DNA of 64,000 nt from Eledone cirrhosa (taxonomy: Eukaryota): contig OZ024741.1 of assembly GCA_964016885.1 (NCBI GenBank), positions 113,150,001 to 113,214,000 on the forward strand. Direction: 5' to 3'. This document shows, piece after piece, positions 23,463 through 64,000 of this stretch. Within the stretch, counting starts at the first letter, position 1. Each line of letters starts with the position of its first letter. Below the pieces are notes generated by a model. That model saw only the letters and a program-made list of their open reading frames with translations. It searched no databases and was not told where the DNA came from. A program made the translations under genes and the position numbers.

Positions 23463-26202
23463 ATTGTTATACTTGGGGAGAGTCATTTTTGTGTAATATT
23501 GCCAGAATTAATAACAGCACACACTCACTGTTTGGTTGGTTTTCGCTTTTCGCTTCTGTGTCTTTTATATCGGTAATCTAATTTATTCGGTCCTCAATGT
23601 TGCCATTGACTGACCAACGGTCAAAAATAATACAGATACAATATAGACACAAACACATATATATAGTTTATCAAAGTTCTTTCGTTGCACATCTGCAACA
23701 TCGTCAGTGGTGCTATTGTTTCCTCCCGTTACATTGTAAATCTACGCTATCTTTATTTATTTATTTGTTTGTTTATTTTATTTTGTCTTCTTTGCGCATG
23801 CATTTGCGTGTGTGTATAGTGTTTTGTTTGATGTGTGTTCGTGATTGGGTGACTGTGTATTGGTTAATGTATTCTATCTTTACTAGTGTGTGTTTATATG
23901 TGTTTGTTGTTATTGTGCTTGTGTATGTATTTATTTATTTATTTATCTATTTATTTATTTATTTATTTATTTATACTTTTCTTAGGTCAGTGTTGTTTGT
24001 TTGGGTGTTGTTGTTATTCCATTCATTCTTTCTGTTTCTAAGTTCTATTTCTCTGGCCTCTCTGATTTGCCCATCTGCTGAGTCATTTTTATGTTTAGAT
24101 ATTATTCTAATTTCTATGTCGTCTATGTTACCGTCGTGTTGTTGTCTGGCATGTTCGTATACTACTGAACCGTTTTTTCGTCCTTTTAGTTCCCCCCAGT
24201 GTTGGTCTATCCATTCACCTATGCGACGAGCTGTCTCGCCTATGTATGTTGTTGTCATGTTTCTGCAAGTACCCTCTGTACATCTTATGCTATAGACTAC
24301 GTTTCTACTTTTACAGTTTATCCGGGGGTTTACTTTACATATGATACATTTCCTATTAGTACAGTGGGTTTTCTTAAAAGTGTAGGTTTTGCTGATCAGG
24401 GATTTTATGGTTGTTCCTGGCTTTTCTACCACCTTAATCTTTAAGTGGGTCTTTCTCAGAGCCTTTCTACACTGGTTAGCTAATTTCCCTCCAGGGGTAG
24501 CGTCCACAAACATGACACTCTGGTATCTCTGGTTGTCGTACCACGAGGTGGCTTTCCCTATCTTATGTCTAGCCCTATCTAAGCTATTCCATGATTTGCT
24601 CCTGTATAATGGGCAAATTCCTTTCATGTCCAGTTCTATGAGGGTCTTATACTTCTCCATGGCTCCTTCGTATACACTGACTCTGTCTCTTTGGTTGTAG
24701 CCAGAGAACTGCATGCGGTTGATGAAGTGTTGGATGTCTCTTTCCACTTTTGTTGGATCGCACATGCGGGACACATTCTTCATCACTCGTACCAAATCTG
24801 CGATCAGAATATTAAACTTAGCACTACTGGACATTGCTGAGTTTTTGAGTATCAGGTATTTGGAGGCCATGGGTTTAGCATAGTGTGAGTGGAGAATTTG
24901 GACTCTCTCGTCTATAGTGTTAATCCAGAGTTCCGTGTCTAATACAGGTAGTCTATTGTTAGGGTGTTTGGAAGGGTAGTCGATACTAACGGTTATACTC
25001 TGGTGTATGGAATTAGCTATCTGCTGGATGCTTTCCATTGTGCTACGTTCTAAATCAAACTTGTTAGTGCTCTCTAGTGGGGATGTTCTTATAACTATAT
25101 TGATATCGTCTACGTAACGAGAGTACATGATGAGGTCTATGGAGCTCTCATTAAGGAGATCTTTAAGTCTCCTTTCCCCCATACCATAAAAAGGTTGGCA
25201 ACATCACCAGCTATGCTGACGCCAATGGCTGCGCCCTCATTTTGGGTGTAGATCTTCTCGTTGAACTTGAATATGTGGCCCTTTAGCGTAGTTTTGATAC
25301 TAGCCCCTATTGCATGTGCGACCATTTTTCTTACCTGATCATTGTTTGGTGGGGTCCGTATAGCTTTGGTCCACCCAATCCACCTTCCCATGGGAGTCTT
25401 TTTTGCCATTGAGGTTATGGTGGGGGGTCTAACTCTTATGGGTCTACTGGGGCAGAAACGTCTAAGGTCATGGCTGTCTAGGTAGTCAGTGTCGTAGGTA
25501 AGTCTAAGTAGGAAGCCCAGTTCGTCTGCGTCGACGTCGCAGAATTCCACCTCACTCTCAATGATCATCTCCACACATTTTTCCACAGCAAAATCAATGT
25601 TAATGGATGGGTACAGTGATACCACATCCATGCTGCCTATTATGCTGTTGGATAGGTTCCTGTTTTTGTTGCACTCACTGATTCTGCTGAGGAGGTCCTC
25701 TGTACTGTCACATACATCTGGGGACATCTTAATTATGGGGCGTATAACCATTGAGAGGAAGTAGGAGATCCTGTAGTTGCTAGCTATATTAGCTCCGCAT
25801 AACGGTTTTGTTGGTGGTCCTGTTGTCGGGTCGTCGACTGTCTTGTGGTCTATGCGGAGCCCATACAAGGGTGGTATGCCATTGTTAGACGCCTGCAAGT
25901 TGTTGGCAGTGCGTCTGCTTGGCTTTAGGATGTCAGTCCACATCATCATGTGAGCGTTGAGGATTTTCTCTCTCCCATCATGCGTTTGCTGTGCAATTTC
26001 GCTCGTGTTGGTGATGTGGGGTTGCATAGCCTTGATGGAGTTCGACATGCTATCTATTGACATCCTACCAGACTTATCCGTGGGTAGACATACTACCTCA
26101 CCATACCTTGTGCGCTGCTTGAGGCTAACCAAGCCTTCTACAGGTTTCCTTCCAAGTTTTTGGGCCTCTGGTCTGCTCTGTCTCTTTGTATACCGGTCTA
26201 CT
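23463..26202 (-). mobile_element. Penelope-like retroelement (family P1): RT + GIY-YIG, frameshifted, 5'-truncated
   Basis: TDKSG, SMDVVSLYPSI, QNEGAAIG, RYVDD, LPVLD (RT); NVVYSIRC...TYIGETAR (GIY-YIG); pseudo-LTR 23463-23970. Confidence 0.9.
23670..23711 (-). ncRNA. Hammerhead ribozyme-like motif (P1 pseudo-LTR)
   Basis: ACCA-CTGACGA-T-GTTGCA(GATG)TGCAAC-GAAA-GAAC-TT-TGAT; stem I has a mismatch. Confidence 0.55.
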
Positions 26203-27735
26203 ACTCAGCAATGTCCAGTAGTGCTAAGTTTAATATTCTGATCGCATATTGGGTAGGAGTGATGAAGAATGTGTCCCGCATGTGCGACCCAACAAAAGTG
26301 GAAAGAGACATCCAACACTTCATCAACCTCATGCAGTTCTCTGGCTACAACCAAAGAGACAGAGTCAGAGTATACGAAGGAGCCATGGAGAAGTATAAGA
26401 CCCTCATAGAACTGGACATGAAAGGAATTTGCCCATTATACAGGAGCAAATCATGGAATAGCTTAGATAGGGCTAGACATAAGATAGGGAAAGCCACCCC
26501 GTGGTACGACAACCAGAGATACCAGAGTGTCATGTTTGTGGACGCTTCCCCTGGAGGGAAATTAGCTAACCAGTGTAGAAAGGCCCTGAGAAAGACCCAC
26601 TTAAAGATTAAGGTGGTAGAAAAGCCAGGAACAACCATAAAATCCCTGATCAGCAAAACCTACACTTTTAAGAAAACCCACTGTACTAAAAGGAAATGTA
26701 TCATATGTAAAGTAAACCCCCGGATAAACTGTAAAAGTAGAAACGTAGTCTATAGCATAAGATATACAGAGGGTACTTGCAGAAACATGACAACAACATA
26801 CATAGGTGAGACAGCTCATAGCATAGGCGAAAGGATAGACCAACACTGGGGGGAACTAAAAGGACGAAAAAACGGTTCAGTACTATACGAACATGCCAGA
26901 CAACAACACGACGGTAACATAGACAACATAGAAATGAGAATAATATCTAAACATAGAAATGACCCAGCAGAGAGGCAAATCAGAGAGGCCAGAGAAATAG
27001 AACTTAGAAGGCCAAGACTAAACAGAAAGAATGAATGGAATGACAACAACACCTAAACAAACAACACTGACCTAAGAGAAGTATAAATAAATAAATAAAT
27101 ATTGTTATATTTGGGGAGGGTCATATTTGCGTAATATTGCCAGAATTAATAACACACTCACAAATAGATAAATAAATAAATAAATACATACACAAGCACA
27201 ATAACAACAAACACATATAAACACACACTAGTAAAGATAGAATACATTAACCAATACACAGGCACCCAATCACGAACACACATGAAACAAAACACTATAC
27301 ACACACGCAAACGCATGCGCAAAGAAGACAAAATAAAATAAACAAACAAACAAATAAATAAATAAATATATAAACAGAATAAATAAAATGGCGTAGACAT
27401 ACAATGTAACGGGAGGAAACAATAGCACCACTGACGATGTTGCAGATGTGCAACGAAAGAACTTTGATAAACTATATATATGTGTTTGTGTCTATATTGT
27501 ATCTGTATTATTTTTGACCGTTGGTCAGTCAATGGCAACATTGAGGACCGAATAAATTAGATTACCGATATAAAAGACACAGAAGCGAAAAGCGAAAACC
27601 AACCAAACAGTGAGTGTGTTCTGTTATTAATTCTGGCAATATTACACAAATATGACCCTCCCCAAGTATAACAATATTTGTTTCGACACACGATTTCATA
27701 TAAAAAACCTCGCAAAACTAATTCATCGCCGTTAT
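26203..27735 (+). mobile_element. Inverted partial copy of Penelope P1 (thumb/GIY-YIG, inverted tip 27101-27160, pseudo-LTR, 3' extension)
   Basis: Reverse complement of 23463-24842 with scattered substitutions. Confidence 0.9.
27427..27468 (+). ncRNA. Hammerhead ribozyme-like motif (P1 pseudo-LTR)
   Basis: Same motif as 23670-23711. Confidence 0.55.
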
Positions 27736-27769
27736 ATATATATAACGGCGATGAATTAGTTTTGCGAGG

Positions 27770-63188: not shown

Positions 63189-63307
63189 ATATATATATAT
63201 ATATTTATATATATATATATATATATATATATATATATATATATATATATATATATATATATATATATATATATATATTTATATATATATATATATATAT
63301 ATATATA

Positions 63308-64000
63308 TTTAGTTTCTGAATTTGTTTAGCAAGATTCTTTATCTGAAATCGTGTGTTGAAACCGATATTGTTATACTATATATAATATATATATATATAT
63401 TTATATATATATTTATATATATATATATATATAAATATATATATTATATATATATATATATATATATTTATATATATTTATATATATATATATATTTATA
63501 TATTGTCATACTTTGGGAGGGTCATGTTGCCAATAAGAAACACACACACCAGTTGCTTTCACTTCAATTTATTATATATTTATAAATTTATAAATTTACA
63601 AATCTACAAACTTATAAATTTCTGGTTGGTTGGTTGGTTCCACAACCAGATAGTTCTTTATATATATAGTCATAGTCCTTTCGTCACACACTCTGTGACC
63701 TCTTCAGTGACTGGGGATTCCTTTCTTTGTTTCTGTGCCTTTCCTTTCTTCTGTCCTACGCCATTTTGTTTCTGTGTGTGTGTTGTGTGCTCAGTTTGCG
63801 CATGCGCCACATCCGGGTGTCTGTGTGTGTTTGTGTTCATTTATCTATTTGTTTATTTATTTATTTATTTATTTACATGTTGTTGGTTGGTTGTTTGTTC
63901 TATGTCTGTGTGTGTTTTCATTTTGTCCTTAATTGTAAGTTGTGATGTTGCTGTTCCGCTCATATTTTCTATTTAATTTTGGTTGTAATTCTTTTATGCT
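63308..64000 (-). mobile_element. Penelope P3 pseudo-LTR and 3' extension, interrupted by (TA)n; continues beyond window
   Basis: Near-identical to 51765-52220 and 61385-61465. Confidence 0.85.

Follow-up and report, generated by a model that had tools for sequence, protein, structure and literature searches.

Introduction

Minimal type I hammerhead ribozymes are carried by the pseudo-LTRs of metazoan Penelope-like elements (PLEs) (Cervera and De la Pena 2014, PMC4209133), and a canonical hammerhead has been described as universal in the Hydra clade of PLEs, all Hydra hammerheads in File S2 of that study beginning with ctga (Craig et al. 2021, PMC8557442). The role of PLE hammerheads is stated as open in the same work. 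Hammerhead mutants did not block PLE insertion in vitro, making cleavage dispensable there (PMC11167929), and mutants of the CUGA core have low hammerhead activity (PMC9901934). Type I hammerheads also occur in metazoan non-LTR retrozymes (PMC7229834; bioRxiv 10.64898/2026.07.22.740005).

Here we analysed a 64,000-nucleotide stretch of the Eledone cirrhosa genome (hereafter the window). Its motifs show the same type I layout as those of PMC4209133, and the setting is also shared: a genome holds many families, the copies are for the most part truncated and solitary, and pairs occur on opposite strands.

Hammerhead families in the window

The original prediction of 21 hammerhead motifs in about 40 kb was borne out, the type I layout being found at all 21 listed places, and the estimate of about 10 families likewise held, with 10 recovered by sequence grouping (A-I and F34) or 9 if F34 joins F. 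The motifs trace to approximately 14 independent insertions. The CUGANGA core attributed to all of them is present in 16 and missing from the other five, which differ at core position 4 (CAGAUGA at 33231; CCGAUGA at 45794 and 47521; CAGAAGA at 48334 and 51594). Families H and G carry fixed core variants that were absent from that first account, position 4 of G being C in 91 of 100 copies listed, whereas the A4 at 33231 is private to that copy and the rest of its family F subfamily has U4.

Family A is a 5'-truncated PLE insertion (23473..27725, minus strand) in which the remains of an ORF with reverse transcriptase (RT) and C-terminal GIY-YIG regions lie at 23971-26204, together with a 5'-inverted copy on the plus strand at 26203-27665; one hammerhead lies at 23670..23710 (minus strand; CUGACGA, C3 at 23707, N17 at 23674, proximal stem I short) and the other in the inverted arm at 27427..27468 (plus strand; C3 at 27431, N17 at 27464). 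Family B is represented by a 5'-truncated PLE at 51769..52648 (minus strand; GIY-YIG remnant at 52151-52648, hammerhead at 51895-51939, CUGAAGA) and a 3' end at 63508..64000 (minus strand; hammerhead at 63668-63712), and family C by a hammerhead at 28324..28379 (minus strand; CUGAUGA, palindromic loop III) within a stub of about 160 bp flanked by (TA)n runs. The family D fold-back at 29265..29457 has a one-armed tail and two hammerheads (C3 at 29326, minus strand, and 29333, plus strand) with U10.1-U11.1 and a stem III of 4 bp; a second D 3' end at 53735..53863 (minus strand) has a hammerhead with C3 at 53856 and a decayed stem II.

Family F includes a 5'-truncated, Hydra-type element at 31007..32553 (minus strand; endonuclease remnant at 32553-32248, hammerhead at 31047-31111), the private U4A hammerhead at 33214..33299 (plus strand), and an inverted insertion with a 99% identical local duplicate at 60602..63180, whose hammerheads (C3 at 60679 and 62123, minus strand, and 62998, plus strand) all have an A-A mismatch closing stem II. 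The related F34 fold-back of 301 bp (34026..34326) has hammerheads at 34052-34122 (minus strand) and 34230-34300 (plus strand). Family G forms inverted arms of 789 bp at 45716..47599, with CCGAUGA (U4C) twice (C3 at 45794, minus strand, and 47521, plus strand), and family I is a 129-bp fold-back at 59435..59563 (minus strand) with one hammerhead at 59469-59514.

A fixed core change in family H

Family H occurs in the window as a Hydra-clade PLE at 47807..51752 (plus strand) with pseudo-LTRs at 47860-48492 and 51119-51752 and a broken ORF at 48522-50650. It contains two plus-strand motifs with U4A, at 48313..48387 (CAGAAGA; C3 at 48334, N17 at 48374; stem I of 5 bp, a 7-nt bulge and 8 bp) and at 51573..51647 (C3 at 51594). 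With at least 30,000 3' ends in the genome, H is the most numerous family counted. Core position 4 is A in 18,366 of 18,547 copies (99%) and another base in 181, and A4 was also present in all 82 H copies from loci chosen independently of the H motif. Each of six open 713-aa H frames has CAGAAGA at its 3' end. The ORF contains RLRWRA (RWR), HSDKT (DKT), the linker CNCRNRADC (CxCx5C), CDLC and CKH and lacks CCHH, which agrees with the protein criteria of the Hydra clade (PMC8557442), as does a by-eye likeness to Hydra ORFs, and H insertions lie in (TA)n, as expected of that clade. The clade itself is defined by protein; the canonical 3'-end hammerhead associated with it is the trait from which H departs. 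In a tree made up of sequences from this genome and its relatives only, the sister families that group with H in a supported clade either retain U4 (D, F) or have U3-A8.

One H subfamily with two broken stem II pairs is present in 206 exact copies, and its diagnostic changes are common to 24 of the 25 loci read. This subfamily could owe its mobility to trans action.

Because A4 is nearly fixed in H, sister families have U4 and the subfamily with a broken stem II has spread, it is probable that H transposes while its ribozyme is weak or dead, and as judged from its sequence the motif is filed as hammerhead-like rather than as a proven ribozyme. U4A would break the U-turn and open a competing helix, thereby reducing catalysis, and stems I and III may be retained because they structure the 3' end. 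In folding predictions the competing C3-G12 helix had a probability of 0.40-0.60 with A4 versus 0.004 or less in two natural U4 copies, and the proximal stem I had a low predicted probability with both A4 and U4.

The H hammerhead might instead be active as a new core variant, with the long bulged stem I, contacts of loop II or the protein of the element making up for U4A. H subfamilies with UTRs 8-16% apart all retain the three helices and the rest of the core, the two main subfamilies differ only within the stem I bulge, and U4C persists in nature (PMC3088659) as well as here, in family G and in a relative with other stems. Among H copies partly picked via the motif match, divergence was 5/75 in the motif versus 30/187 in the upstream UTR for one subfamily comparison (p=0.046) and 2/73 versus 16/179 for another (p=0.11); as the motif diverges less than the UTR and its changes lie in the stem I bulge, some constraint appears to remain there. 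However, a second A4 family was found neither among the family clusters nor among the first 100 of 29,941 looser matches, all of which were H; the stem-II-broken subfamily spread all the same; A4 is predicted to favour the competing helix; and CUGA mutants scored low in a full scan (PMC9901934). An active H hammerhead is thus possible but unlikely, and it is about equally doubtful that the most numerous counted PLE family self-cleaves with a natural A4 U-turn core rescued by its long bulged stem I or by the element's protein. Such a self-cleaving core was not found in the literature searched, and U4A as a term is absent from the main text of PMC3088659; Lunse et al. 2017, on PLE hammerhead variants, may list U4 variants. 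Breakpoints within 15 nt of the core were found in 8/30 copies of D, 2/30 of H, 0/30 of B and 0/30 of F; since they pile up at the core in D and do not in B and F, the H value is uninformative on activity.

Motifs in the host gene

The window contains the first coding exon of a host ERAP1-like M1 aminopeptidase gene (35691..36347, plus strand), and the next exon lies about 115 kb downstream, so that all motifs from 45749 onward are intronic. Plus-strand motifs had been proposed to cut a host pre-mRNA and, by extension, sense-strand motifs might alter gene expression in this way: of the 11 window motifs that are intronic, 4 lie on the gene strand, and the stem III of D-type motifs could permit activity as monomers. 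These four are, however, one U4C motif, two U4A motifs and a copy with a stem II mismatch. Over 326 kb of gene, 17 canonical motifs were sense and 14 antisense (p=0.72), purging not being evident, and PMC2995048 reports that splicing was efficient even where a slow hammerhead cut the intron. The proposal therefore fared poorly, and we consider cleavage of host pre-mRNAs with an effect on expression improbable. In the first intron an antisense bias was apparent, but it disappeared once the 326 kb of gene were counted.

Origin of the ribozyme-bearing ends

The motifs had been placed mostly in short non-coding fold-back inserts, yet only 5 of the 21 lie in short (<350 bp) fold-backs. Inverted-arm structures hold 11 of the 21, and six lie directly 5' or 3' of same-strand PLE ORF remains. 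Fold-backs are not the rule genome-wide either, an inverted arm at a distance of 1.5 kb or less having been found in only 33 of 120 copies sampled from four families; they represent standard PLE 5'-inversion. The description of stem III as minimal with a palindromic loop suits family C, which has a palindromic loop III, and fails for families D, E and H. The proposed diverse population of PLEs and retrozymes, whose commonest products are short ends that are 5'-truncated, carry a ribozyme motif and lie in (TA)n, was upheld by the linked ORFs, by the tandem retrozyme family E and by an upstream extent beyond the core of less than 500 nt in 90 of the same 120 copies.

ORFs were linked to families A, B, D, F and H; none was linked to C, G or I at the loci examined. 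The PLE hallmark of an RT ORF with a GIY-YIG endonuclease was found in A, B (Pfam GIY-YIG, 6e-5), H, D and F, and Pfam gave no RT match among six ORF pieces from the window. Further PLE traits are pseudo-LTRs, 5' truncation or inversion and a tail on one side. The ORFs of D, F and H are of the Hydra clade. Those of A and B have a Cys-rich linker along with a GIY-YIG region at the C terminus and were compared with the candidate clades Nematis or Neptune (CX2-5CxxC linker, CCHH, C-terminal endonuclease); their linker reads CTNRKCIIC and, like their short spacing, is similar to that of the Nematis sequences.

Family E is of another kind. The window copy (30024..30690, minus strand) comprises 1.27 non-coding units of 517 nt with a hammerhead at 30241-30316 (CUGAGGA), and a tandem array with a 517-bp period lies at C3:202356663-202360142. 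Each unit is non-coding (its longest frame from an ATG spans 43 aa) and carries a single type I hammerhead, and the motif recurred in 10 of 11 other loci. By these sequence features, E is a young 517-nt tandem retrozyme, which would move through a circular RNA intermediate with PLE proteins. It could be argued from its tandem units, which share 98% identity and have variable ends, that most stubs are autonomous-looking retrozymes spread via circular RNA rather than truncated PLE ends; but A, B, D, F and H have linked ORFs and 3' ends fixed at 40-250 nt beyond the core, with variable 5' truncation points, making such a general origin very improbable. Most motifs are, on their structure, the 3' ends of 5'-truncated PLEs, mainly of the Hydra clade, inserted in (TA)n.

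Motif frequency, covariation and abundance

A descriptor combining the core, three helices and U16.1-H17 matched the window 16 times when strict and 21 times with any base allowed at position 4, compared with means of 0.21 (maximum 2) and 0.53 (maximum 3), respectively, in 100 local dinucleotide shuffles, an enrichment of 40- to 76-fold. The 21 relaxed matches comprise 20 of the predicted motifs and one chance match at 45602, which falls in a decayed SINE-like repeat of an abundant kind; the motif at 53856 escapes because its stem II has decayed. An earlier descriptor that lacked the extra nucleotide gave only seven window motifs. In Rfam, the hammerhead models suggested as a check were not matched (150 of 190 matches listed in one scan, plus further scans), the matches obtained being miRNA models driven by microsatellites, and single-motif folding z-scores for 11 motifs were unremarkable (-1.83 to +1.27, none significant). 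Covariation was seen in family F only, with double changes in 10 of 20 pairs (0/500 shuffles as high) and 93.2% of 560 cells paired (slid controls 57% or less); the cross-family alignment had poor registration and a badly fitting structure string, and H copies were too uniform for such analysis.

Exact motif copies in the genome numbered 18,547 for H, 16,201 for D, 14,419 for B, 11,961 for a subset of F and 207 for G, with 0 matches for reversed-motif controls, and the genome total of such motifs is likely 160,000-400,000. Genome density is about one per 11 kb, and that of the window about three times the average. Lost cleavage as the cause of the success of H was considered and dropped, as canonical D and B reach similar counts. 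That the motifs arose by chance within AT-rich repeats or are artefacts of assembly, as the 45602 match and the missing Rfam scores might suggest, has practically no likelihood, being refuted by the enrichment over shuffles and the covarying stems of F and opposed by dispersed copies in the tens of thousands. The window motifs are genuine type I hammerhead sequences, those with a canonical core being putative ribozymes.

Discussion

We consider it probable that the window contains type I hammerhead sequences, most of them near the 3' ends of PLEs and one in a tandem retrozyme of 517 nt, that the reverse transcriptase and endonuclease of the elements themselves likely copied them into (TA)n, and that the ribozyme with which H transposes is likely weak or dead. 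Judging by published work on PLEs, reverse transcription would start at set sites just beyond the hammerhead and usually stop early or invert, so that the hammerhead would be the part most often left behind. Cleavage by the minimal motifs (A, B, C, F, G, I) would be slow and would depend chiefly on dimers formed in tandem transcripts, and little activity would be expected of solitary stubs.

Sister Hydra families of similar copy number that are canonical (D), U3-A8 or U4A (H), together with the stem-II-broken H subfamily, form a matched natural set that would test whether PLEs need their ribozyme. If the H ribozyme is dead, mass transposition has taken place without a working ribozyme; if its core is active, it is a new tolerated core missed by current descriptors, with about 30,000 motifs hidden in H alone. 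At their motif density, octopods are a rich source of natural hammerhead variants.

The hammerheads of PMC4209133 further share the extra nucleotide after A9 (here in A and B), the short or palindromic helix III and the U3-A8 variant, here in sister families. In contrast, that study quotes 2,000-9,000 motifs against the likely total given above, helix III is 4-5 bp in D and H, and U4A and U4C are fixed family-wide here. Of the natural core variants of Perreault et al. 2011, U4C, U3-A8 and U10.1-U11.1 recur here (PMC3088659). Family E has the same organization as metazoan non-LTR retrozymes (non-coding tandem unit, one type I hammerhead each, low GC, dispersed monomers and multimers), its 517 nt lying above the 170-400 nt of PMC7229834 and within the 51-972 range of bioRxiv 10.64898/2026.07.22.740005, but it differs in its PLE-style inversions and (TA)n targets, and its circular RNA is here a presumed intermediate. 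With the Hydra clade of PMC8557442, which includes Hydra-1_Obim of Octopus bimaculoides, the elements share RW(K/R), DKT, the CxCx5C linker, absence of CCHH, a C-terminal GIY-YIG-type endonuclease, (TA)n targets, the U10.1-U11.1 layout, partial tandems, 5' inversions and a one-sided tail. Few families with canonical hammerheads were described there, whereas several with tens of thousands of copies occur here, and the H motif (CAGAAGA) is unlike that of Hydra-1_Obim in sequence. The kind of element is thus already known; what distinguishes H is that its catalytic core carries a fixed substitution, which is predicted to impair cleavage severely.

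Hammerhead motifs in the window and the genome

The type I hammerhead layout was present at all 21 positions of the original prediction. A motif descriptor allowing an optional nucleotide after A9 yielded 16 matches with the strict CUGANGA core and 21 with any base at position 4, compared with 0.21 and 0.53, respectively, in 100 local dinucleotide shuffles. The window scan recovered 20 of the 21 predicted motifs, missing that at 53856, and an extra match at 45602, within a SINE-like repeat, was rejected as chance. The canonical core assigned to every motif was found in 16; the other five differ at position 4, where the A at 33231 is private decay. 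Self-comparison gave 9-10 families, as against about ten proposed, in about 14 insertions. The description of the motifs as lying mostly in short fold-back inserts held only in part, in that inverted-arm structures contain 11 of the 21 but short fold-backs only 5.

Some fold-backs or stubs that sit in (TA)n lack a hammerhead (27708-27769, 27953-28199, 33338-33503, 61392-61522 and 63316-63371); the last two match the terminal tail of family B, while those beginning at 27953 and 33338 form one additional family. Two 525-bp copies (60602-61123 and 62046-62570), with (TA)n and fragments of the family B tail between them, are 99% identical and represent either a local duplication or an assembly repeat. 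On the minus strand, a short Hydra-type RT remnant (40071-39874) has 41% identity to family H, and a stretch at 23329-23407, which scores weakly against the Rfam model of the HDV-like ribozyme drz-agam-1 (30.4 bits, gathering threshold 37, E = 0.045), lies directly 5' of RTE-like LINE remains (19182-22281). RTE elements carry HDV-like ribozymes.

The assembly totals 3.0 Gb, and the window is on its contig C2. Forty 10-kb stretches at hand-chosen round coordinates on contigs C1-C13 contained 40 descriptor matches (26 strict), from which we extrapolated null-corrected totals of ~275,000 motifs (bootstrap 160,000-400,000) and ~185,000 strict motifs (100,000-280,000) genome-wide. Matches per 10-kb bin of the window were 0, 0, 5, 5, 4, 3 and 4, the maximum in the sampled stretches being 4; the window is dense in motifs without being unique. 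Exact genome counts, with one pattern per family, were 18,547 for H, 16,201 for D, 14,419 for B, 11,961 for part of F and 207 for G. The family D pattern was uneven by strand (9,125 forward vs 7,076 reverse), possibly owing to a tandem array; those of H, B and F were not. The window hammerheads are real, and their biology is mostly already known, at large scale.

Identity of the elements

The predicted diversity of Penelope-like elements (PLEs) and retrozymes was borne out, with PLE open reading frames tied to families H, D and F. Elsewhere in the genome, family H has intact 713-aa frames with RWR, DKT and CxCx5C but without CCHH, a combination given for Hydra elements in PMC8557442. Tandem copies of family D carry the D motif upstream of ORFs with 51-53% identity to H, and Hydra-type endonuclease remnants are followed 1.1-1.5 kb behind by the family F motif. 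A 21-row tree grouped H, D, F (on a long branch) and a U3-A8 family in one supported clade. Hydra families at L067:3756-5150 and L049:8328-9450 (both plus strand), 48-52% identical to H, have a terminal U3-A8 core in which stem II is long and helix III weak. Family E, a non-coding 517-nt unit whose copies are 98% identical, with tandem arrays and variable ends, for these reasons fits a non-LTR retrozyme; there are about 2,000 candidates, 40 of which were scored. Families C, G and I had no linked ORF among the loci examined.

For families H, D, B and F, the first 30 loci per family were compared (120 copies); their 3' ends fall at two or three set distances from the core, next to (TA)n. Upstream extent was <500 nt in 90 copies, in agreement with the claim that short ribozyme-bearing stubs in (TA)n are the commonest products, and 33 had their own inverted arm. 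Family D fold-backs have the tail on one arm, the arrangement drawn for PLEs in PMC8557442. In 8 of 30 family D copies (L220-L249), 5' breakpoints and inversion junctions cluster ≤15 nt from the core, which may mark an RNA start or snap-back at stem I; the cluster is absent in B and F.

Host gene

The gene overlapping the window has 86% identity to an Octopus sinensis ERAP1-like aminopeptidase, which makes an octopod the probable host. It has exons at window coordinates 35781-36347, 151569 and 361948; its continuity across these is inferred, because one intervening exon was looked for and not found. Its introns are very long (window 36348 to G000:C2:113511948), the first about 115 kb, with 326 kb separating exon 1 from residue 320. 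The original prediction that plus-strand motifs could cut a host pre-mRNA gained no backing: the first intron holds 11 window motifs, of which none of the 4 on the gene strand is intact and canonical, and canonical matches over the 326 kb comprised 17 in sense and 14 in antisense orientation (p = 0.72). Nothing here points to an effect on the host. According to PMC2995048, splicing still takes place across introns that a slow hammerhead cuts.

Stem conservation and core position 4

Covariation was evident in family F, where both partners vary in 10 of 20 pairs and none of 500 shuffles reached the score, although relatedness inflates this test. Pairing held in 93.2% of cells, compared with ≤57% in slid controls. 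The alignment comprised 28 copies hand-picked across subfamilies; two wrong-strand matches and some near-duplicate or damaged copies were left out and three copies added. Selection acts on the family F structure, and the derived model picks up 8 window motifs at E < 1e-6. In family D, loop II varies and the stems are fixed, most stem positions having been fixed by the search pattern itself.

U4 of the hammerhead core has a role in the U-turn. Family H (core CAGAAGA) has A at this position in 18,366 of 18,547 exact copies, the remainder (G, U, C) resembling background mutation; in all 82 copies at loci chosen without the H motif; and in all six 713-aa copies read. A looser pattern gave 29,941 matches genome-wide (control, 5). 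Since sister families D and F keep U4 (98/100 and 100/100 among matches listed) and the Hydra motifs in File S2 of PMC8557442 all begin ctga, A4 is most simply explained by one substitution on the H lineage.

We consider it probable, from sequence and folding models, that family H catalysis is weak or dead with the 3' structure retained. That H is instead an active U4A variant seems unlikely. In favour of activity, divergence between H subfamilies was lower in the motif than in the adjacent UTR (5/75 vs 30/187, p = 0.046; 2/73 vs 16/179 in a second comparison, p = 0.11), a contrast biased by selection of copies on the motif, and the motif changes fall in a bulge or swap G-U for A-U. Against activity, CUGA changes were low in activity in a full mutant scan (PMC9901934); a competing helix is predicted at a probability of 0.40-0.60 with A4, compared with ≤0.004 in two natural U4 copies; and a subfamily with two broken stem II pairs has 206 exact copies, its diagnostics common to 24 of 25 loci. 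Also on this side, PLE insertion in vitro still took place with mutant hammerheads (PMC11167929). Separately, 6 of the 25 stem-II-broken copies (L195-L219) run past stem I' into a common pyrimidine-rich sequence, possibly a chimeric subfamily.

Family G (core CCGAUGA) has C4 in 91 of 100 matches listed, a base that also occurs in a relative with different stems. A further minimal motif, found once in the sampled DNA (L075:9392-9470, plus strand), has a CCGAAGA core and a two-base palindromic loop III. U4C is already described as a viroid variant in PMC3088659. A title and abstract search with partial coverage, cephalopod hammerhead and retrozyme literature included, found no paper on a U4A hammerhead family. 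The novelty lies in a Hydra-clade family of very high abundance whose core is fixed for U4A alongside canonical sisters, a pairing that makes it inexpensive to ask whether cleavage by PLE hammerheads matters.
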